A stretch of 32,000 nucleotides of DNA from Microcystis aeruginosa NIES-843 (GCF_000010625.1 NC_010296.1:3930001-3962000), one strand, 5' to 3'; shown: positions 8,561-32,000, counted from the first letter of the stretch. Program-made: numbers and translations. Notes: generated by a model not told the origin, from the letters alone.

Positions 8561-9780
8561 TAGAACTCTTGCAAATTAATTATATGTTATAATGATGGGT
8601 TAACTAATTTTCCCCAAAAAATTAGTTAACCAGTACATTAGTCCTGAATGAAAACTTGAAGTTTAACTTTTAACTCAAAACTCTTTAGAGCTGCTTTAAT
8701 TTGGTTATCAAAACCTCTTTATTTAAGCGGCACAAACTATCTCAATTATAAAAATTGAGAATAAATTCTCCTTGACTTGATTAATCTTTAGGCAACTTTT
8801 AAGAAGCTGCTATACCTATCCCTAACTCACAGTTATAAATAGCCGCCAACAAGTTAACTCTTAAACTATATCTTCGACGACGATTCCGATATTTACAGGA
8901 TAAGATTTTAAAGATTTTGAGTTTCCTATTTATAGGTTCAATGATAATCCTTTCTTTGGCTAAAGCCTTGTTATACTCTTTTTGTAACTCTGTTAATTTT
9001 CTATTTTTCGATTTCTTTTTCGGTGTATAACTATTACTATGGTATGCAGCTATTCCCTGATAACCACTGTCTTCTATGCTGGTAGTTAAAGGATGAAAAC
9101 GAACTCGACTTTTTTTAAATAAACTAAAATCATGACCTCTACCTTTCCCACAAAAGACACAGATAATTTCCTTTGTATTTTGATCAGCTACTAATTGGGA
9201 TTTTAAAGTATGATAACCTCTTTTACCCCCCAAAAAATCTTTCTGTTTCTTTTGGGGGCGTTCAATGGGAGTTTCCGTTACATCCATTACCGTTATGACC
9301 GGTATCTCTGCTTGATTGAGTAAAGCTTTTTTTCCTTTTAAACGGAAGTTTCCCGATTGTAAAAGCATTTTTTCCGTCTTATTTACAATCCGACATATAG
9401 TTGATTCTGATAGTTCCCAGCTTGTACCAATGTGAAAATATGTTCTATATTCTCGCCAATATTCTAACGTTACTAAAACTTGTTCTTCTATAGATAGTTT
9501 AGGTTTCGGTCCCCTTTTAGATGGTGAATTAGAGTCGGCTTCAACACTTTTTACTGATTCTACCATCTTTCTATATGTTTGTTTATACACACCGAAACGG
9601 CGTTTGAATTGTTCATCTGATAAGTTTTGATAATCCATAATTTTGCTAATAAACATAGCAAAATTATAGATGATTTCCTGACCTAAGATCACATTTTATT
9701 CTTTTTTCCACTTCAATCTAAGAATTGAGAAAAAAGCAAAACCTTATATTATACCATAAAAAAATTATGCAAGAGGTCTA
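8561..9780 (-). mobile_element. IS5-like insertion sequence (DDE_Tnp_4 / Harbinger-type transposase), ~1.2 kb
   Basis: Imperfect terminal inverted repeats: TAGAACTCTTGCAAATT at 8561, and TAGACCTCTTGCATAAT as the reverse complement ending at 9780. The target duplication is not resolved (TA or TAA possible). Confidence 0.65.
8799..9692 (-). CDS. IS5-family transposase (HTH_Tnp_4 + DDE_Tnp_4)
   Basis: The HTH segment is LSIEEQVLVTLEYWREYRTYFHIGTSWELSESTICRIV. The DDE core is VMDVTETPIERPQKKQKDFLGGKRGYHTLKSQLVAD...GRGHDFSLFK. The probable true start is M19 (MDYQNLSDEQ, 9638). Confidence 0.85.
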   Translation of the reverse strand: MILGQEIIYNFAMFISKIMDYQNLSDEQFKRRFGVYKQTYRKMVESVKSVEADSNSPSKRGPKPKLSIEEQVLVTLEYWREYRTYFHIGTSWELSESTICRIVNKTEKMLLQSGNFRLKGKKALLNQAEIPVITVMDVTETPIERPQKKQKDFLGGKRGYHTLKSQLVADQNTKEIICVFCGKGRGHDFSLFKKSRVRFHPLTTSIEDSGYQGIAAYHSNSYTPKKKSKNRKLTELQKEYNKALAKERIIIEPINRKLKIFKILSCKYRNRRRRYSLRVNLLAAIYNCELGIGIAAS

Positions 9781-16628: not shown

Positions 16629-17858
16629 CTACTTGATAATTTTCGAGATAACGCCAGAACCGATGGTGCGACCACCTTCGCGAATAGCGAAGCGCATACC
16701 CTGTTCAATAGCGATCGGGTTGATCAGTTCCACGGTCATTTTGATCCGGTCTCCCGGCATGACCATTTCTACAGTGCTGCCATCATCGGCGGTGTAGTCT
16801 TGGATAGTGCCAGTTACGTCAGTTGTCCGTACATAGAACTGAGGACGATAGTTTTTAAAGAAAGGAGTGTGACGACCACCCTCTTCTTTACTTAACACAT
16901 ACACCTCACCTTCAAACTGGGTGTGGGGTTTGATTGTACCCGGTTTAGCGATCACCATGCCGCGCTCGATGTCGGTTTTTTGGATACCACGCAGGAGGAT
17001 ACCAGCGTTGTCACCGGCCATCCCTTGGTCAAGACTTTTCTTGAACATTTCAATCCCGGTGACGGTGGTGGGGCGAGTTTCTCTGATCCCGACCAATTCC
17101 ACGTTATCACCCACTTTCACAATACCGCGTTCGATCCGACCGGTAGCCACCGTCCCCCGACCAGTAATCGAGAATACGTCTTCTACCGCCATCAGGAAGG
17201 GTTTATCGATATCCCGTTCAGGGGTGGGGATATAGCTATCTACCGCTTCCATTAATTCATAAATTGCGTCCACCCACTCGTTATCGCCTTTTTGGGCCTT
17301 GGGGTTTTTGGTCATGTACTCGAGGGCTTCTTTCGCAGAACCGGCAATAATGGGGATATCGTCGCCAGCGAAGTCGTAATTGGTGAGAAGTTCGCGTACT
17401 TCCAGTTCTACGAGTTCCAGTAACTCCTCGTCGTCCACCATATCTTTTTTGTTGAGGAAGACCACGAGGTTAGGTACACCCACCTGACGAGCCAGCAGGA
17501 TATGTTCCCGGGTTTGGGGCATCGGGCCATCGGCGGCCGAGACCACGAGAATACCACCGTCCATCTGTGCCGCACCGGTGATCATGTTTTTTACATAGTC
17601 CGCGTGGCCGGGGCAGTCCACGTGTGCATAGTGGCGACTGGCGGTTTCGTACTCAACGTGAGCGGTGTTGATGGTGATCCCGCGGGCTTTTTCTTCGGGA
17701 GCGGCATCGATTTCATCGTATTTTTTAGCTTGGGCATTACCCAGAGCCGCTAGGGTCATAGTGATAGCGGCGGTGAGGGTAGTTTTGCCGTGGTCAACGT
17801 GACCGATCGTGCCGATGTTAACGTGGGGTTTCGTCCGTTCAAATTTAGCGCGTGCCAT
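16629..17858 (-). CDS. tuf: Elongation factor Tu
   Basis: [44 protein letters not shown] and SAK motifs. 409 aa. Confidence 0.98.
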
Positions 17859-17981
17859 TTACTTTCTGTTCCTTTGTTTTTTTTCTTCTTCAGGTGGGTG
17901 AACAGTAATCAGTCACCAGAGATCAGTTTTAAGTTAGCAGTTGTTAGGGTTGACCGCTCGAATTTAAATGATCGGTTTATT

Positions 17982-18009
17982 CTCACTGCTCACTGCTCAC
18001 TGCTCACTG
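17982..18009. repeat. Heptamer tandem array CTCACTG x4 in the fusA-tuf spacer
   Basis: Read directly; ends 1 nt from the fusA stop codon (18011-18013). Confidence 0.9.
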
Positions 18010-18010
18010 A

Positions 18011-20086
18011 TTAGCCGTTCCCTTTACTTTTGGTGATAATCGTCTCGGCCACGTTGCGGGGGACTTCTTCGTAATGGCTAAATTCCATGGTGAAGATGCC
18101 CCGTCCCTGGGTTTTGGAGCGAATATCAGTGGCGTAACCAAACATTTCCGCTAAGGGAACTTTAGCGGAGACTTTGGCGATGCCGGTCTCGGTTTCTTGA
18201 CCTTCGATTTGTCCCCGACGGGAGTTAAGATCACCGATGACGTTACCGATGAAGTCTTCGGGTACTTCCACCTCGACCTTCATCATCGGTTCTAGGAGAA
18301 CGGGGGTAGCTTTCATCACCGCTTCCTTAATCGCCATGGAACCGGCAATCTTAAAGGCCATCTCGGAGGAGTCCACATCGTGGAAAGAACCATCTACAAG
18401 GGTTGCTTTCAGGTCGATGACGGGATAACCCGCTACAATCCCCGATTCGCAAGCTTCTTTCATCCCTTGTTCTGACGGACTGATGTATTCTTTGGGGATA
18501 GCACCACCGACAATTTTGGAGACGAAGACAAAGCCAGATCCCGGTTCACCCGGTTCGAGTTCGATGACGACGTGGCCGTACTGCCCTTTACCGCCACTTT
18601 GACGGATAAATTTACCCTCAGCGCGCACGGGTTTCCGCACAGTTTCCCGATAGGCCACCTGGGGAGCGCCCACCGTCGCTTCGACTTTGTATTCCCGGAG
18701 CATTCGATCGACGAGAATTTCCAGGTGCAGTTCTCCCATCCCGGCGATTACCGTTTGATTGGTTTCGGGATCAACTTTGACCCGGAAGGTGGGATCTTCA
18801 TCGGAGAGAGCTTGCAGAGCTTTGCTGAGTTTCTCGATGTCCTGTTTGGTTTTCGGTTCCACCGCCACGGAGATAACCGGTTCGGGGATAAAGAGGGATT
18901 CTAGGATAATCGGGTTCTTATCATCACAGAGGGTATCCCCGGTAATGGTGTTTTTCAGCCCGATCGCCGCTCCTAGATCACCGGCGCGCAGTTCATCCAC
19001 TTCGATCCGTTCGTTGGATTTGAGGATGATCAGGCGAGCGATCCGTTCTTTGGTTCCTTTGGTGGAGTTGTAGGCGTAGCTGCCTTTGGCTAACACACCG
19101 GAATAGACCCGTAGGAAGGTTAAACGACCGAAGGGATCGGCCATGATTTTGAAGGCGAGGGCCGAGAAGGGCGCATCGTCCTTGGCTTCCCGGATTGCCT
19201 CGCTGCCATCGGGAAGAATCCCTTTAACGGCGGCTACTTCCGAGGGTGAGGGTAGGTAATCGACGACGGCATCGAGGAGCAGTTGTACCCCTTTATTTTT
19301 GAAAGCCGAGCCGCAGAGGACGGGAACAATTGTACCAGCAATCGTCCCTTCTCTGAGACCGCGTTTGATTTCGGCTTCGGTGAGTTCTTCACCTTCTAGA
19401 TATTTTTCTAGGAGTTCTTCATCAGCTTCCGCTACAGCTTCCACCAGCTGCACGCGGAATTCTTCGGCCTTTTCCAATAAGTCTTCGGGAATGTCGGTTT
19501 CTTCTATGTCTTTCCCTAGATCGTCCTTATATATATAGGCGCGCATCTTGACGAGATCAACGATCCCGCTCAGTTCGCTTTCCGCGCCGATCGGCATTTG
19601 GATGGGAACGGCGTTAGTTCTGAGGCGATCTCTTAATTGTTCGTAAACTTTGAAGAAGTTCGCCCCCGTTCTGTCCATTTTGTTGATAAAGGCAATCCGG
19701 GGTACTTTGTACCGATCGGCTTGTCTCCAGACGGTTTCTGATTGGGGTTGTACACCACCAACAGAGCAGAAAACCGCTACCACTCCATCGAGTACCCGCA
19801 TGGAACGTTCCACTTCAATGGTGAAATCGACGTGGCCGGGGGTGTCAATGATGTTGATGCGATGATCTTGCCAACTGGTACTGATGGCGGCGGCGGTGAT
19901 GGTGATTCCTCGCTCCCGTTCCTGTTCCATCCAGTCGGTAATTGCCGTTCCGTCGTGGACTTCGCCCAGTTTATGAGCGACTCCCGTGTAGAACAGGATT
20001 CTTTCTGTTGTCGTTGTTTTGCCCGCGTCTATATGAGCGGCGATTCCGATGTTTCGCACTCTCTCTAGCGGGATAGTCCGTGCCAC
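18011..20086 (-). CDS. fusA: Elongation factor G
   Basis: [33 protein letters not shown] and NKMDR. 691 aa, full length. Confidence 0.98.
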
Positions 20087-20217
20087 AGCAACCTCCTTGC
20101 TTTGCTTGCCAGTGATGGGATTTTGTTCTAGGATTTTTTACACTATTTACAATTCTATACTTTTCTTGACAGTTTTTTGGCGGCAGCGGTGTAGTCCACC
20201 GCCCTTAAAGTATCTTT

Positions 20218-20688
20218 TTAGTAACGATAGTGGGCAAAGGCTTTGTTTGCCTCTGCCATCCGGTGGGTTTCTTCCCGTTTTTTGATCGTGCCGCCGGTTT
20301 CATTGGCCGCATCCATGATCTCGTTAGCTAGTTTACCTGCCATGGTTTTGCCGCCTCTAGTCCGAGCATAATGGACTAACCAGCGTAGTGCCAAGGTACT
20401 ACCACGATTGCTCCGTACTTCCATCGGTACTTGATAGGTGGCTCCACCGACCCGGCGGGCTTTCACTTCCACTAGGGGAGTGGCGTTTTTAACGGCTTTT
20501 TCAAATACTTCTAGGGGTTCTTGACCGGTACGTTCGCCGACGGTTTTCAGGGCATCGTAAACGATGTTAGCGGCCAAGGATTTTTTGCCCGATCGCATGA
20601 TCCGGCGGATGGTCATGCTGACTAAACAGCTATTGTAAACGGGATCGGGGGGAATAGGACGTTTTTTGACGTTTTTACGGCGAGACAT
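20218..20688 (-). CDS. rpsG: 30S ribosomal protein S7
   Basis: [20 protein letters not shown]...[20 protein letters not shown]. 156 aa. Confidence 0.96.
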
Positions 20689-20843
20689 CGGAATATTCCT
20701 GAATTTTCTAGGTTAACTTTAACTTTTGCTTGACAGTCGGATGATTACAGCCCATCTCAAACCCCCTCCTGCGAGTTTTCAGTCTCTTGGGTTAACTTTG
20801 ACCGACTCGGTGGGAGTATTTTTTTGGTTAATCAATTCCCTGT

Positions 20844-21227
20844 TTATTTAGCGGCGGGTTTGGGGCGTTTGGTTCCGTACTTAGAGCGCGCCTTTTGACG
20901 GTTTTTCACCCCAGTGGCATCGAGGGTGCCGCGAATGATGTGATATCTGACTCCGGGTAGATCTTTGACCCGACCGCCCCGAATCAGGACGACCGAGTGT
21001 TCTTGCAGGTTATGACCGATGCCCGGGATGTAGGCTGTCACCTCAAATCCAGAGGTCAAACGTACCCTAGCCACTTTCCGTAGGGCTGAGTTGGGTTTTT
21101 TCGGTGTGGTGGTATATACTCTTGTACAAACTCCCCGACGTTGGGGGCATTGTTTGAGGGCGGGAGATTTGGTTTTTCTTTTCGCTTTGGATCTTTCGTC
21201 GCGTATTAATTGCTGAATGGTGGGCAT
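20844..21227 (-). CDS. rpsL: 30S ribosomal protein S12
   Basis: MPTIQQLIR...[55 protein letters not shown]. 127 aa. Confidence 0.96.
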
Positions 21228-24825: not shown

Positions 24826-25431
24826 CTAGCGACTGCTACGATCTTGGTCCAAGACGCTGACAGGGAAATTATTATAACCAACGTGATGCTTGCTGGTTTT
24901 TTGAATTTCTTCTTTAATTTGATCTAGATCAACATAGCGATCGGCTACATTAATTAAACTATCACTGGTCATCGATCGCAAACTAACCACTTCCACTCGC
25001 GCACCACGGTAACTGACGGAATCGGCAGCATAGGCCAAATCCCCATCACCACTGACAATTACTGCGGTATCATAGGAACCCACTAGCGCCATTAAATCCA
25101 CGGCAATTTCCACGTCAAGATTGGCTTTTTTGGAACCATCGGGCAATTGTACTAGATCTTTAGCGATGACTCGATAACCGTTGCGACGCATCCAGAGGAG
25201 GAATCCCTGCTGTTTTTCGTTAGTGCGATCAACTCCAGTATAAAAGAAGGCGCGCAAGAGACGAGAACCGGCAGTTAAACGACAAAGTAATTTGGTGTAG
25301 TCAATTTCGATACCTAATTGCAGAGCCGCATAAAATAAATTGGAACCATCGATGAAAATCGCCACACGACCGCGATTTTCTAGCACTTGTTCGGGGGTGA
25401 AGACTGGGGCCGTGTCATAATCATCAAACAT
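24826..25431 (-). CDS. NYN-domain (LabA/DUF88-like) protein
   Basis: VAIFIDGSNLFYAA...IDYTKLL...RAFFYTG...DVEIAVDL...AVIVSGDGDLAYA is the NYN/LabA acidic-residue pattern. 201 aa. Confidence 0.8.
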   Translation of the reverse strand: MFDDYDTAPVFTPEQVLENRGRVAIFIDGSNLFYAALQLGIEIDYTKLLCRLTAGSRLLRAFFYTGVDRTNEKQQGFLLWMRRNGYRVIAKDLVQLPDGSKKANLDVEIAVDLMALVGSYDTAVIVSGDGDLAYAADSVSYRGARVEVVSLRSMTSDSLINVADRYVDLDQIKEEIQKTSKHHVGYNNFPVSVLDQDRSSR

Positions 25432-28127: not shown

Positions 28128-28979
28128 CTAATTTGGTGCAATAGATTCTCCCGATTCCTCCTCCTCAAACACAGGATAAAGATGTTTCAGCTTGACCCTA
28201 GCATCGCTGGTCGTAAACGTCCATATTACTGTAGATGCAGTCTGATTACGTTCTTTTTGCCAGGTTTCTATCTCCCTTTTCAGTTCTTCCTTGCTAGAAA
28301 TCCTTCTATCTAAACATTGCCTCGATAAGACGCTTAGTTCAGTTTCGGCTACATTTAACCAGCTACCATTACGAGGTGTGTAATAAATTTCCAGTCTTCT
28401 AGCTAAACGATGAGCAACGGGTGCTGGAAATGCTTCATAAAGCGAGGCTATGTTATGAGTGTTGAGATTATCACAGACGAGCTTGACTTTTCGAGCCTTT
28501 GGATAGTCCACATCCAATAATTGACGAATTTCTTCTGCCCAATCTATTCGGGTTCGACTATCTCGGTTACTCACCCGTCTCCATCCTCGATGGGGGTCAA
28601 AAAACATGAACAAGGCTTGAACCCCTTCACGACTATAGTGATAGTCTTCTTTTTTATCTTGTCCAGGTTGCATGGGTATCGGAGGGTAAACTTCTCCAAG
28701 TAGTTGCTTTGATGCTTCATCCATCGCGATTAACGGTTCTTCTTCCGATGGCTGAGTGCCATACAGGTCAAGGACAACTTCCATCTGGGCAACAAATCGG
28801 GCTAAATCCTGTTCCGGAATACAGTATCTTTGGGTTTTCCAAGGGCGTAATTGGTTTTTTTTAGAGTACGCCACACCGTTGGACTGGAAATCTCGGTGAT
28901 AATTTGTCTTTGTTTGAGTTCCGAGGTTAATAGTCGGATTGTCCACTCGGCTCGGCCAGATGGTGGCTCCGAACAGCAC
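28128..28979 (-). CDS. IS630 transposase, downstream frame (DDE catalytic part, orfB), reached by a -1 frameshift
   Basis: VCDNLNTHN and WLNVAETELS are the DDE blocks. This frame is -1 relative to orfA. The functional product would join at the A8 run (28855-28862), so the N-terminal part of this track ORF is not expected to be translated as such. Confidence 0.8.
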   Translation of the reverse strand: MLFGATIWPSRVDNPTINLGTQTKTNYHRDFQSNGVAYSKKNQLRPWKTQRYCIPEQDLARFVAQMEVVLDLYGTQPSEEEPLIAMDEASKQLLGEVYPPIPMQPGQDKKEDYHYSREGVQALFMFFDPHRGWRRVSNRDSRTRIDWAEEIRQLLDVDYPKARKVKLVCDNLNTHNIASLYEAFPAPVAHRLARRLEIYYTPRNGSWLNVAETELSVLSRQCLDRRISSKEELKREIETWQKERNQTASTVIWTFTTSDARVKLKHLYPVFEEEESGESIAPN

Positions 28980-29305
28980 AGGGCAATGATTTGGGCGGCG
29001 GCGGCTCCATCAACTTTTGCCGGAGTGGGGGGAGTTTTTCTCGATTTCCGTTCTAATGCTGGTTTTTCGCCTTTTTGAAGAAATCTTTGACGAATACGTC
29101 CCACTGTATTTCTATGAACTTCTAAAGCTTCGCCTATTTCTTCATCTGTCCATTTCCTTTTCGCCTGTTCTCCCTCGTCACACATCAGCAAAATCCGAGC
29201 GTGGAGAATTTTTTTAGCTGGTGCATAGCCATTACGACTGATTTGTTCGAGGTTTTCTCTTTGTTCCCCTGTTAGATTGACTTTATCTCGCCGACCTCTT
29301 CCCAT
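28802..29305 (-). CDS. IS630 transposase, upstream frame (HTH DNA-binding part, orfA)
   Basis: MGRGRRDKVNLTGEQRENLEQISRNGYAPAKKILHARILLMCDEG... is a helix-turn-helix N-terminal domain. It overlaps orfB by 178 nt. Confidence 0.85.
   Translation of the reverse strand: MGRGRRDKVNLTGEQRENLEQISRNGYAPAKKILHARILLMCDEGEQAKRKWTDEEIGEALEVHRNTVGRIRQRFLQKGEKPALERKSRKTPPTPAKVDGAAAAQIIALCCSEPPSGRAEWTIRLLTSELKQRQIITEISSPTVWRTLKKTNYALGKPKDTVFRNRI
28855..28862 (-). other. A8 slippery run: candidate programmed -1 ribosomal frameshift (or transcriptional slippage) site of the IS630 transposase
   Basis: The minus strand reads CTA AAA AAA ACC in the orfA frame. The same bases read TCT AAA AAA AAC in the orfB frame, one nucleotide back. 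Confidence 0.6.
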
Positions 29306-29521: not shown

Positions 29522-29746
29522 TTATGGAGATTTCCACTCTCCTTCTGGGATCATGGCTGTAATCATGATGTTACGCAATGTTCCAGTAGGTAAATCTCTC
29601 CCTTGATGGTAAGGTACGATAACTTGAGTATCTTGATCCCTACCACGCCATTTTCTATGACTACCCTTCTGAGAGATCAGTTCAAAGTTATACTTGCGTA
29701 ATATGCGCTCAACCTCGTCAGCATTCATTCTCCTGAGTCGAGTCAT
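29522..29746 (-). CDS. hicA: HicA toxin (mRNA interferase)
   Basis: MNADEVERILRKYNFELISQKGSHRKWRG...VIVPYHQGRDLPTGTLRNIM is the HicA pattern with the catalytic GSH. The likely start is the internal MNADEV. It overlaps hicB by 4 nt. Confidence 0.85.
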   Translation of the reverse strand: MTRLRRMNADEVERILRKYNFELISQKGSHRKWRGRDQDTQVIVPYHQGRDLPTGTLRNIMITAMIPEGEWKSP

Positions 29747-29946
29747 CCCACCATAACCTCACGGATTACTGCTCCTGGTAGAAGGTCGATAGCATCAGGT
29801 TGTAAATAAAGCTCGATCGCTTCGCGTATATTATTGAGAGCTTCCTCTTGTGTAATACCGGCAGATGTGCATCCGGGCAGTTCCGGACACCAAATTGCCC
29901 ATTCGTTTGTATCGGGATCCGGTTCAAGTATCACTCGCCATTTCAT
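29743..29946 (-). CDS. hicB: HicB antitoxin (short form, HicB/UPF0150 fold only)
   Basis: WRVILEPDPDTNEWAIWCPELPGCTSAGITQEEALNNIREAIELYL is the HicB N-domain. At 67 aa it has no appended DNA-binding domain. Confidence 0.85.
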   Translation of the reverse strand: MKWRVILEPDPDTNEWAIWCPELPGCTSAGITQEEALNNIREAIELYLQPDAIDLLPGAVIREVMVG

Positions 29947-30126
29947 AGGGACTAAATCCTTAGAGAACTACCCAAGATGATAACAGATGGACTCCACAAG
30001 CATAATCAATGCTCAAGCCCGGGATGACTCGATAGTGGTTCACGTTGAAAAAGCTCCCAATTCCATATCTTCGTTAGAAAGGCTTTGCTGCCATTTTAAT
30101 TCACTTTCAATATCTTCTAGCAATTG

Positions 30127-30164
30127 ATAATTCATAATTCATAATTCATAATTCATAATTCATA
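30127..30164. repeat. Heptamer tandem array ATAATTC x5.4
   Basis: Read directly, 11 nt downstream (minus-strand sense) of the ParB-like gene's stop. On the minus strand it gives ATG every 7 nt, just after an AAGGAG. Confidence 0.9.
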
Positions 30165-30174
30165 CTCCTTTTTC

Positions 30175-30867
30175 TTATTGCGCCAATATTCTGACTAGCT
30201 CTGCTTTCTTCATCTTGCTTAAACCAACGATTCCTTTTTCTTTGGCTAGAGTCTTTAATTCAGAAACAGTCTTGAGTTTGAGAGTTTCTTCTGAAAACTC
30301 CTCAATCACTGCATCTTGTTGAGATTGAGGAGTGAGATAAAAGACAGTTTTGAGTAAATCTAATCCCTTCCCTTTTGTAATTCCACACTTGAGGGCAACA
30401 ATTGAATCTAAACTCTTCCAGAATTGACGGGGAGCCTCATCAATCCTAGCAGTAGCAGTAGCTAATTTAATTGTTTTTAGTGGGCTATTCGGTTGTTCAA
30501 TCAAGAACTGTAAAGCAGATTTAATTTCTTCTCTTGAAGCTGTTGACAGATTTAGTTTTGGGGTTTCTTCTCTTGCCAAAACTCTGGATATATTCCTAGC
30601 ATCTTCTGTTCCATCGGCAATAATACACCAAATTCTTTCTAGTCCAGCCCTTTCAGCCACAGCATAAACAAATGAGTTGCCGATAACTTCATAGCGATCC
30701 TCTGATAGTTCTTTCACGATTACAGGCAGCCAATTGCGTCCACCTGTCTGCTGTAATAGTTTAGCAGTAGCTTCAATTAAAAAACTATCAGCATCGGTCC
30801 CATTGGTAATTTCTATTTCATCTAGGTATAGATACTTCAAAGTACCAATATCGGTATATTCCATCAT
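30175..30867 (-). CDS. ParB/Srx-like N-domain protein with a degenerate arginine patch and a C-terminal Rho_N/SAP-like domain
   Basis: LPVIVKELSEDRYEVIGNSFVYAVAERAGLERIWCIIAD follows the ParB N-domain layout, but has GNSFVYA where canonical ParB has GERRxRA. The C-terminal TVSELKTLAKEKGIVGLSKMKKAELVRILAQ matches the Rho N-terminal helix-hairpin. The start overlaps the upstream ORF's stop (ATGA). Confidence 0.6.
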   Translation of the reverse strand: MMEYTDIGTLKYLYLDEIEITNGTDADSFLIEATAKLLQQTGGRNWLPVIVKELSEDRYEVIGNSFVYAVAERAGLERIWCIIADGTEDARNISRVLAREETPKLNLSTASREEIKSALQFLIEQPNSPLKTIKLATATARIDEAPRQFWKSLDSIVALKCGITKGKGLDLLKTVFYLTPQSQQDAVIEEFSEETLKLKTVSELKTLAKEKGIVGLSKMKKAELVRILAQ

Positions 30868-32000
30868 TGTAAAAAATACTCCTTTGCTAAGTCTTTGTAA
30901 TAGTCATAAGCGGAACGATTTTTATAAACGGCTGGCACGCGAGCGAAAGCAGCACTGGCTATAATAGCGTATTCTGGCAGGTGATGAATATGTAAATCTT
31001 TTTTGGCATTAGTGTATCTGGGATAAAAATAGGGTAAAAGGGTTTTGTCATTTTTTAGTATTTGATTAATTTCTTTTTGGGCAAGCTCTAACTGTGGTTG
31101 AGTAATCTTCTCACCGTTGAAAAAAATTGGTAAGGCTATGGGAGTCCCATCTTTTTTTAATTTTTGCATTTGCGGCAGAAACTCCTTGATGGCAGTGGCT
31201 GCATTATTAAGGGAGAATGAATTGTTATGTTTTGTGGGTAAGAGGACAACATCGGCAGCATAAACAGCCAGCCGGCTAGTAAATCGCCAATTGGGAGCTG
31301 CATCTATAAAAATGTAATCATATTCATATCTAGCTAAGTCTAATTTTCTATGGAGAGTGGATATTGTCATTTTAGCATTATACTCCAATTCCGGATACTC
31401 TGCCATTTTAGGCTCAGCAGGAACAACATCGAAGGTAATTTGTAGTTTTGAATTCTTAAAAGTATAGGGACGAATCACTGATTTTAGTTCAATATTGCGG
31501 TCAGTTAAAGTCTTTTCTAGTAGGCCATCTTCTGGTTCGATATTTAGGATAGATTTAGTTAAATCTCGTTGATTAAAATCAAAGTCTAAAACTAGAACTT
31601 TTTTACCTAAAAAGGCAAGGAAAGCGGCAAGATTTACGGTTGTGGTGGTTTTGCCTATACCGCCTTTATTATTGTAAACAGTAACCGTTAATGCTTTGGG
31701 AGTATTGTCAATTTTTGTTTTGATCCGAGCTACAGTCTCATCAATGTTCTCAGGGGTTAGCTCTATGCAAGTAGTGGCAGGAAAAATGGTTTTACCATGT
31801 TTTCTAAATAACTGGATGTGTGAACTATTATTGATAATTCCCCATTGGGATGCTTGACACTTAGTCCCTAATAACTGACGCTTTAACTGATTGACAGTTG
31901 CCTTATAACTTGGACTATTTTCAGTTAGGTTAATATCTCTACCTTTTAACTCTATCAGCAGAAAAGGATTACTCTTTGTCTGCAAAAAAATATCCTTTTC
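30864..32000 (-). CDS. Fusion protein: PD-(D/E)xK HsdR_N-like domain + ParA/MinD-class P-loop ATPase. The 5' end probably lies beyond the right window edge.
   Basis: The ATPase has a deviant Walker A NNKGGIGKTTTT (31648-31668), then VLVLDFD and a Walker B YIFIDAAP. N-terminal to it, (EK)DIFLQTKSNPFLLIELKGRD...VNQLKRQL...WGIINNSSHIQLFRK fits a D...ExK nuclease-fold core of the HsdR_N type. The frame stays open from 31985 to position 32000, so the track's TTG start is probably internal. Confidence 0.7.
   Translation of the reverse strand, partial: EKDIFLQTKSNPFLLIELKGRDINLTENSPSYKATVNQLKRQLLGTKCQASQWGIINNSSHIQLFRKHGKTIFPATTCIELTPENIDETVARIKTKIDNTPKALTVTVYNNKGGIGKTTTTVNLAAFLAFLGKKVLVLDFDFNQRDLTKSILNIEPEDGLLEKTLTDRNIELKSVIRPYTFKNSKLQITFDVVPAEPKMAEYPELEYNAKMTISTLHRKLDLARYEYDYIFIDAAPNWRFTSRLAVYAADVVLLPTKHNNSFSLNNAATAIKEFLPQMQKLKKDGTPIALPIFFNGEKITQPQLELAQKEINQILKNDKTLLPYFYPRYTNAKKDLHIHHLPEYAIIASAAFARVPAVYKNRSAYDYYKDLAKEYFLQ

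Follow-up and report, generated by a model that had tools for sequence, protein, structure and literature searches.

A two-gene operon was recognized at the end of a 32,000-nucleotide (nt) stretch of DNA from Microcystis aeruginosa NIES-843 (NC_010296.1:3930001-3962000). The whole stretch is called the window here, and positions are counted from its first letter. The upstream gene encodes a ParA-type ATPase fused behind a predicted PD-(D/E)xK nuclease domain (the fusion), and the downstream gene encodes a ParB-like protein with a Rho_N tail (the partner). The pair is a real operon that occurs throughout the cyanobacteria and on some cyanobacterial plasmids. In our reading, to which we assign a probability of about 45%, it is a ParAB-derived, ATP-gated nuclease with a ParB-like adaptor, which acts in DNA conflict or replicon policing. 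The genes, the domains of their products and the key motifs were located as follows.

30864..32000, minus strand: 3' 1137 nt of the nuclease-ParA fusion gene (residues 67-444 and stop codon); the open reading frame (ORF) is open at base 32000
31704..32000, minus strand: in-window part (residues 67-165) of the predicted HsdR-N-type PD-(D/E)xK domain with the linker helix, by HSDR_N_2 match (residues 27-133), model and conserved signature
31944..31952, minus strand: codons of E83-L84-K85, the (D/E)xK of the putative nuclease motif, by sequence; E83 and K85 in 77 of 77 relatives
30867..31703, minus strand: ParA/Soj-type ATPase domain (residues 166-444), by AAA_31, CbiA and MipZ matches and Soj/ParA folds
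31647..31667, minus strand: deviant Walker A motif KGGIGKT (signature lysine K178, P-loop lysine K183), by sequence
30864..30867, minus strand: ATGA overlap of the fusion stop and the partner start, with the same 4-nt overlap in 65 of 78 related loci
30175..30867, minus strand: ParB-like / Rho_N partner gene (ATG start, 230 amino acids, aa), with orthologues of about 60% identity in all major cyanobacterial orders
30577..30840, minus strand: ParB/sulfiredoxin-fold N-domain of the partner (residues about 10-97), with GNSF (62-66) at the place of the ParB GERR, by Foldseek and a ParB_N match below cut-off
30334..30552, minus strand: central helical domain of the partner (residues about 106-178) with invariant R147, W150 and C161 and the motif LKCGITKGK, by model helices and Foldseek
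30184..30282, minus strand: C-terminal Rho_N (SAP/HeH-like) domain of the partner (residues 196-228), by Pfam PF07498

Operon structure

The two minus-strand ORFs overlap as a preliminary description of the window had pointed out, the stop codon TGA of the fusion (30864-30866) being included in the ATGA. The overlap type was conserved in related loci (64 ATGA and one GTGA), and the fusion was placed directly upstream of the partner in 78 of 81 loci. The first 66 codons of the fusion lie beyond the window edge. By exact-sequence look-up of the 230-aa partner, Microcystis metagenome contigs were recovered, two of which (L002 and L003) were identical to window positions 30175-32000 in 1826 of 1826 bases. 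Because these contigs complete the upstream gene to 444 aa (L002:3510-4844), the window is seen to cover fusion residues 67-444 only. The extension that the preliminary description had called for, having seen the ORF open at the edge, thus gave the true N-terminus. The fusion motifs KGGIGKT, DFD, FIDAAP, LLIELK, QLKRQL and WGIINNSSHIQLF were all located in the sequence. Conservation of both genes in hundreds of genomes, together with ratios of nonsynonymous to synonymous substitution rates (dN/dS) below 1 for both within Microcystis, sets the pair beyond a chance occurrence.

N-terminal domain of the fusion protein

The N-terminal domain probably belongs to the HsdR-N-type PD-(D/E)xK families (Pfam PF13588/PF04313), and its nuclease is apparently intact, judging from conserved residues and a structural model. 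With the full N-terminus (residues 1-165), the Microcystis fusion matched HSDR_N_2 over profile positions 5-96 of 110, at E = 0.003-0.006 and 17.1-17.9 bits against a Pfam cut-off of 25. The same profile was found at E <= 0.01 in 13 of 21 diverse relatives (best 1.2e-6), and the cut-off was reached by the plasmid copy L088 (25.5 bits) and by protein P0273 (29.5 bits). HSDR_N_2 or HSDR_N matches were present in many members of the fusion family.

The catalytic signature was compared in 77 fusions, among them those of Leptospira and plasmid-borne ones of 25-35% identity. E24 was kept in 75, D59 in 76, E83 and K85 in 77 and Q104 in 74, and D59, in the motif ITDFA, was invariant in alignments A1, A2 and A4. 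The last residue of the QxxxY motif, Y108, was kept in 60 of the 77, and Gln stands there in 15, Microcystis included. The codons of E24 and D59 are outside the window. In the AlphaFold model of the fusion (119 sequences; mean predicted local distance difference test, pLDDT, 93.3; predicted TM-score, pTM, 0.92), the N-domain has the order alpha-beta-beta-beta-alpha-beta-beta-beta, with helices at residues 24-38 and 96-109 and strands at 56-62 and 80-84. E24 is placed in helix alpha-1, D59 in beta-2, E83-x-K85 in beta-3 and Q104-x-x-x-Y108 in helix alpha-2. The signature D...(D/E)xK with the alpha-1 Glu and the alpha-2 QxxxY was therefore found in both sequence and model. From the high pTM, the nuclease domain is also predicted to sit in a fixed position against the ATPase domain, in favour of an ATP-gated nuclease.

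The preliminary description had recognized a nuclease fold here and had taken D69, in DIFLQ, as the catalytic Asp. The fold was supported by the Pfam family and the signature residues. The choice of Asp was not: D69 has a loop position and is not invariant, and D59 fits instead and is, from alignment and model, probably the Asp of the PD position. It had also stated that the proposal would fall if the domain were of another fold or without catalytic residues; the near-invariant signature in the 77 relatives speaks against both.

Searches of structure databases gave less. The N-domain profile, compared with PDB sequences, returned only chance matches to leukocidins, and when the fusion as a whole was run through Foldseek (PDB and BFVD), the matches were of the ParA and kinase types only. 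ParA-type matches fill these whole-protein lists, and the N-domain fold stands as a prediction from sequence and model.

ATPase domain of the fusion protein

ParA/MinD ATPases are positioning switches. The second domain of the fusion belongs to this deviant Walker A class by motifs, profiles and fold. AAA_31 matched residues 171-334 (E 7e-28 to 1e-27), and AAA_31, CbiA and MipZ all scored above their cut-offs. The A' motif is DFD and the Walker B motif is FIDAAP. K178, K183, D205, D207 and D299 were kept in 77 of 77 relatives. The top PDB folds in Foldseek were Soj of Helicobacter pylori and Thermus, a ParA-ATP complex, Cyanothece McdA and pNOB8 ParA (E 1e-15 to 1e-12), with target-normalised TM-scores of 0.73-0.81 against Soj, ParA and McdA. 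The partition equivalogs of NCBIfam stayed far below their cut-offs, i.e., ParA_partition 66.5 against 180, RepA 50.3 against 348, SopA 34.2 against 725 and PrgP 45.1 against 400.

ParB-like partner protein

The partner has the fold of a ParB N-domain. Its AlphaFold model (pLDDT 88.1) was matched by Foldseek to ParB of Myxococcus, Bacillus and Caulobacter, Noc and KorB, as constructs of the N-domain and the helix-turn-helix (HTH), with a probability of 1.00, E of 1e-6 to 1e-4 and alignments of more than 200 columns. PadC and sulfiredoxin (Srx) ranked next, over the N-domain only. TM-scores were 0.35-0.43 because the domain orientation differs. At fold level the order of a ParB N-domain followed by an HTH was thus found, the HTH part being less certain. 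In sequence, ParB_N matched weakly (residues 48-90, E = 0.006, 17.1 bits against 26.3), below the level for membership. The Rho_N domain passed its cut-off (E = 2.6e-6, 27.7 bits against 24.9). When the family profile of the partner was searched against PDB sequences, no ParB was found, and nothing significant beyond faint Rho matches.

Several ParB features were missing. The place of Box II, GERRxRA, with the arginines that bind cytidine triphosphate (CTP), is occupied by GNSF(I/V)YA (here GNSFVYA). Among 112 sequences, N64 was invariant and S65 and F66 were kept in at least 90%, with no Arg; distant plasmid partners have INTQ or SNEH at this place. The N-terminal consensus MSxxxDIGNLMHLYLDEI holds no conserved basic residue of the kind found in the ParA-activating Lys/Arg peptide. 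The C-terminus is Rho_N, and the ParB dimerisation domain is lacking. The partner is thus a natural ParB fold without the CTP-binding arginines, yet under strong constraint.

The central region is probably an HTH-like DNA-binding domain and the counterpart of the ParB HTH, as its alignments and modelled helices suggest. Its motif LKCGITKGK persists in plasmid partners that are very distant, and Acaryochloris pREB8 has it twice. The ParB/Srx layout and the GNSFVYA substitution had been read correctly in the preliminary description, on the evidence of Foldseek, the weak ParB_N match and the 112-sequence alignment. It had further described a Rho_N tail in place of a ParB HTH and dimerisation domain. 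The tail and the lost dimerisation domain agree with our results; the lost HTH does not, the helical region being its probable equivalent.

Domain variants and orphan fusions

A search of 1.8 billion representative proteins gave 70 clusters at E < 1e-30, most of them full-length fusions of 430-480 aa. Some relatives had gained further domains. In P0256 and P0264, a DUF559 endonuclease and a superfamily 1 (SF1) helicase (AAA_11/AAA_12) precede the N-domain and ParA. The P0264 gene is followed by an overlapping gene for a 226-aa partner, 45% identical to the Microcystis partner, and a NACHT gene lies upstream. P0314 carries a Swt1-type HEPN domain in front, and the next gene encodes a partner of 314 aa (hhalign probability 98.3%, E = 1e-14); a Schlafen-AlbA_2/HATPase_c_4 gene and a Fic gene adjoin the locus. 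In P0313 the N-domain is duplicated in tandem, and the second copy is without the Lys. We know of no precedent for accretion of HEPN or of DUF559 with a helicase on a partition ATPase. The variant loci were placed as follows.

L099:6001-8956: HEPN_Swt1, N-domain and ParA
L101:6001-9878: DUF559, SF1 helicase, N-domain and ParA

Saprophytic Leptospira encode an orphan fusion of 438 aa with no ParB-like gene. The HEPN variant (L099) and the Leptospira orphan (L095) each have Fic genes close by. A Rosetta-stone fusion of both genes in one protein was considered for P0273 and rejected, as its C-terminal extension is unrelated to the partner.

Copies on plasmids and in viral catalogues

The pair was found on plasmids unnamed4 and unnamed9 of Nostoc sp. 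UHCC 0870 and, more divergent, on Acaryochloris pREB8. A second, distant clade was found on L. boryana pLBA, Pseudanabaena pPg_01 and Nostoc unnamed10. Its ATPase has 460-480 aa with the same D...ExK...Q N-domain, and its ParB-like protein has 180 aa and is without Rho_N.

Every pair-carrying plasmid examined also has a separate, shorter ParA-type ATPase gene. Besides the module, unnamed4 carries two canonical pairs of ParA and ParB/RepB/Spo0J together with ParM, and unnamed10 carries one such pair. On unnamed9, pREB8 and pPg_01, the separate short ParA-type gene is accompanied by a small downstream ORF. An ordinary plasmid partition cassette, the outcome that the preliminary description had named as fatal to its proposal, is thus only partly matched: some copies are on plasmids, but these copies lie beside canonical par genes.

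On the three Nostoc UHCC 0870 plasmids (L088, L089 and L093), the pair was observed within a few kb of genes for a 597-aa HerA/AAA_10-like ATPase and a 183-aa tyrosine recombinase, and on pPg_01 it adjoins a type IV coupling-protein gene. These neighbours may indicate a link with transfer or maintenance regions.

In the viral catalogue IMG/VR, one contig of 58 kb was found by the N-domain scan to carry the pair, beside Rad52-like and ImmA/IrrE-like genes, those two judged by eye. The IMG/VR scan for the partner gave no match.

Distribution and evolutionary rates

With one genome scanned per species, the partner was encoded in at least 243 species genomes, and the best 80 were all cyanobacteria. 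Orthologues of about 60% identity were found in Nostocales, Oscillatoriales, Leptolyngbyaceae, Pleurocapsales and others, and many of these lay on contigs of chromosome size. The close homologues were from Microcystis, several on chromosome-size contigs of 4.9-5.1 Mb. Across loci, no conserved third gene or neighbour was found beside the pair, and the flanking genes were unrelated between lineages.

A centromere-like sequence was searched for within 400 nt of the operon, and no k-mer or tandem repeat array was common to the roughly 60 loci. The k-mers that did recur there were HIP1 (GCGATCGC) and a promoter-like element limited to Nostocales and Leptolyngbyaceae. This upstream element, AATTGTCC-N6-7-GGGAACAC-N~14-GCTGGAAG, lies 30-70 nt before the fusion start in Nostocales and partly in Leptolyngbyaceae (L007, L022, L023, L028, L030, L031, L038, L040-L042, L045, L047, L051 and L053). 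A promoter or operator role is probable, and that form of the element was not seen in Microcystis.

Rates were compared among Microcystis genomes (L002:3510-4844 and loci L008-L015 and L059). The median dN/dS was 0.65 for the fusion and 0.22 for the partner, and 0.16 and 0.30 for the two upstream neighbours. The value of the fusion suggests either relaxed constraint or diversifying selection. The fusion varies most at residues 261-280, in a loop where indels are also common family-wide. The pair has a GC content of 0.36-0.38, with 0.29-0.31 at third codon positions (GC3), and the GC content of the window is 0.435.

Comparison with known systems

No system in PADLOC-DB v2 matched the pair. The sole match was a weak one of PDC-M28B to the ATPase (38 bits, E = 1.9e-10, profile positions 90-226 of 438), and the partner matched no model, PDC-M28A included. 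The 438-residue PDC-M28B profile is about the length of the fusion, and in the window protein the match takes in Walker A with roughly 40 residues before it. The N-domain core is uncovered, and the plasmid homologues match over only about 40 residues. Full-text searches of the literature gave no description of this pair. The earlier statements that the pair has no exact match to a named system and that canonical ParAB pairs carry neither fusion are both upheld.

Among the closest known systems are the type Ia partition systems, i.e., P1 ParA-ParB, F SopA-SopB and repABC RepA-RepB. These are likewise two-gene operons with the ATPase first and the DNA-binding partner second, and their ATPases have a deviant Walker A motif behind an N-terminal extension of at least 100 residues. 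The NCBIfam RepA and SopA profiles align with the fusion from about position 100, and P1 ParA (3ez2) and Vibrio ParA2 (7npe) were among the fold matches. However, the extension of type Ia proteins is a winged HTH, whereas that of the fusion is of the HsdR-N PD-(D/E)xK type with catalytic residues. The partner is also without the GERR box, the ParB dimerisation domain and the conserved N-terminal basic peptide, and the scores are far below cut-offs.

Soj-Spo0J (ParABS) shares with the pair the best structural matches of both proteins, a chromosomal location and phylum-wide conservation. It differs in that the pair has the nuclease fusion and the Rho_N tail and has no CTP-binding arginines, and no parS-like site was found within 400 nt.

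The HsdR nuclease domain (HSDR_N / HSDR_N_2) is probably alike in fold family, by Pfam, and is alike in the motif order E...D...ExK...QxxxY, and HsdR also joins a nuclease and an NTPase in one polypeptide. Its motor is an SF2 translocase, whereas that of the fusion is a dimerising switch of the ParA type, and no methyltransferase or specificity genes are linked to the pair. Wadjet (MksBEFG) is a condensin-derived anti-plasmid nuclease system with an SMC-type ATPase and a Toprim nuclease. It is similar by analogy only, as chromosome-maintenance machinery combined with a nuclease against foreign replicons; the proteins are unrelated and no homology is claimed.

McdA-McdB is another cyanobacterial ParA-family ATPase with a downstream partner, and Cyanothece McdA ranked among the top folds. 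McdA has no N-terminal domain, and McdB has no ParB fold, being disordered and coiled-coil with Trp at its C-terminus (PMC7182216). By this comparison the partner is not McdB-like, and identity with McdAB was rejected.

The components are thus common to type Ia ParAB, Soj-Spo0J and the HsdR nuclease domain. In this combination they match no named system that was compared.

Proposed function and alternative explanations

As a conflict or policing system, the module would be self-contained and drawn from the ParA/ParB toolkit, with the ATPase controlling the nuclease. In the manner of other ParA proteins, the fusion would form a sandwich dimer on DNA once ATP is bound. The dimer would pair two nuclease domains on the duplex, and cleavage would then be gated by the ATP-bound state. 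The partner would bind DNA via its helical and Rho_N domains, contact the ATPase and set the place and time of dimer formation or release. It may either mark DNA for sparing or recruit the nuclease. The role may be to restrict, or compete with, incoming or co-resident DNA elements, and on plasmids it may be addiction-like.

This role is suggested because the catalytic signature is conserved far beyond the need of DNA binding alone, and because the same protein frame has gained nuclease, helicase and HEPN domains, most variants keeping the partner. The coexistence of the pair with separate par genes on plasmids and the existence of orphan fusions in Leptospira point in the same direction, as do the loss of the ParB features for CTP clamping and ParA activation, the dN/dS of the fusion (0.65 against 0.16-0.30 in the neighbours) and the low GC3 of the pair.

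The genomic context does not help. The preliminary description had placed the pair in an accessory patch, next to hicBA and an IS630 copy. That fits only the strain-variable hicBA and insertion sequence (IS), and the argument fails for the pair itself because of its fixed locus in nine Microcystis genomes, its wide distribution and its ordinary metabolic flanks. A gene specific to a Microcystis accessory region or defence island was ruled out by the same locus and flanks and by the at least 243 species genomes. The conflict module that had been argued from this context survives through the invariant catalytic residues, the HEPN and DUF559-helicase relatives and the canonical parAB genes of the plasmids.

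A number of observations weigh against a conflict or policing role. In every one of the nine species-level Microcystis genomes the pair is found at one and the same locus, which is atypical of defence genes, and the breadth of its phyletic pattern is likewise unlike that of typical defence genes. Both proteins are about 55-60% identical across orders. The flanks of about 60 loci gave 148 proteins with 175 Pfam families, mostly metabolic or housekeeping; the only defence or mobile types among these proteins were Uma2 (four), XisI (two), integrase (two) and PemK (two), and no defence-island enrichment was found. None of the INPHARED phage records encodes the partner, and the absence of a PADLOC system held for chromosomal, plasmid and distant copies alike. 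The closest folds are those of true segregation proteins (Soj/ParA for the ATPase, ParB/Noc/KorB for the partner), and the gene order and coupling are those of parAB. The Tyr-to-Gln change in QxxxY may have weakened some copies (that of Microcystis and others among the 15 of 77). Finally, we infer all three of the nuclease activity, the ATP gating and the contact between fusion and partner.

Those folds and that gene order belong equally to a non-classical partition or positioning system of the ParAB type, which we hold to be unlikely and, for chromosome or plasmid alike, less likely than conflict or policing. The ATPase would then form ATP-dependent gradients on the nucleoid, the partner would be a cargo or centromere adaptor, and the restriction-fold N-domain would be a DNA-binding or autoregulatory module like the winged HTH of type Ia proteins (P1 ParA, F SopA). 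McdA joins Soj and ParA among the best folds of the ATPase, and the best sub-threshold NCBIfam matches, i.e., ParA_partition, RepA, PrgP and SopA, are profiles with N-terminal extensions of about 100 residues. The parA-then-parB order with coupling in 65 of 78 loci, the broad conservation, which looks vertical, and the housekeeping flanks agree with it, and so do the divergent, replicon-specific copies, which a single Nostoc strain has on three of its plasmids and which were also found on further plasmids and one viral-catalogue contig. Classical ParABS is absent from cyanobacteria according to one review (PMC7766704), and the pair might be the missing segregation system of these polyploid cells. 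However, DNA binding alone needs no invariant catalytic residues, and the HEPN and DUF559-helicase accretions have no precedent known to us in partition ATPases. Every plasmid examined has its own shorter ParA-type gene, and two plasmids have an annotated ParB/RepB/Spo0J gene paired with it. The partner is without the CTP-box arginines, the conserved N-terminal Lys/Arg and the ParB dimerisation domain, no common centromere-like repeat array was found within 400 nt of the operon, and the Leptospira fusion has no partner at all.

The ordinary context and the core-gene-like distribution, with a fixed locus in Microcystis, also suit a housekeeping nuclease that processes DNA in repair, recombination or chromosome-copy turnover, with a ParA-type switch and a DNA-binding partner for targeting and timing. 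Intact nuclease and ATPase motifs and a partner under purifying selection (dN/dS 0.22) would be expected of it; copies on plasmids and variants with more domains would have branched off from it. We consider it quite improbable, as there is no conserved linkage to repair or replication genes, copies occur on small mobilisable plasmids and on the viral-catalogue contig, and the fusion appears less constrained within Microcystis (dN/dS 0.65). That the pair is an already known system, whether a plain chromosomal parAB or a member of a named defence system such as PDC-M28 or Menshen, can hardly be credited. The PDC-M28B match (E = 1.9e-10) speaks for it. That match covers the ATPase core and linker only, with no PADLOC model for the partner; the NCBIfam partition equivalogs and ParB_N are below their cut-offs, and the full-text literature holds no description that we could find.

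Neighbouring genes and repeats

The hicA, hicB and IS630-type neighbours named in the preliminary description are present in the window. The toxin-antitoxin pair of hicB (29743-29946) and hicA (29522-29746) lies directly downstream of the partner gene. In other Microcystis loci, hicBA follows the pair in L008, L009, L011 and L059 and not in L010 or L012-L015. The IS630-type element (28128-29305) consists of an HTH_32/HTH_23 orfA (28802-29305) overlapping a DDE_3 orfB (28128-28979). In M. ichthyoblabe (L008), the spacing leaves no room for it at this place.

A tandem heptamer (AATTCAT) of 6.1 copies was found at 30122-30164, 11 nt after the partner stop codon. Other Microcystis genomes have 2-8 copies, and the sequence beyond differs between strains. 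The array may be a junction prone to slippage, or proteins may bind to it. In L001 and L004, a 31-aa ORF was called between the heptamer repeat and hicB.

A 201-aa gene with an NYN domain, a predicted RNase, was found at 24826-25431, adjoining the methionyl-tRNA synthetase gene. The only ORF of the window with a lower GC content than the pair is at 8799-9692 (GC 0.336). At 16629-21227, four minus-strand ORFs (409, 691, 156 and 127 aa) have a GC content of 0.51-0.52, well above the window mean; their sizes would fit tuf-fusA-rpsG-rpsL.

Significance

The pair is real, widespread and architecturally unusual. A nuclease built into a ParA/MinD ATPase, if active, would be a new use of a positioning switch, present in hundreds of species and on plasmids. 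If the pair does police DNA, it would be a new class of nuclease system, and it might bear on the establishment of foreign DNA in cyanobacteria. In the most far-reaching form of this reading, which we regard as somewhat unlikely, it would be the founding member of a ParABS-derived system of immunity or replicon policing, with a CTP-independent adaptor and fixed in cyanobacteria. The ATP switch of ParA type would place the restriction-fold nuclease on DNA, and the adaptor would determine which replicons are attacked and which are left alone. As the ParA/ParB counterpart of Wadjet, it may then shape the handling of foreign DNA. If segregation is its true role, it would bear on how polyploid cyanobacteria, said in a review to be without classical ParABS (PMC7766704), distribute their genomes.

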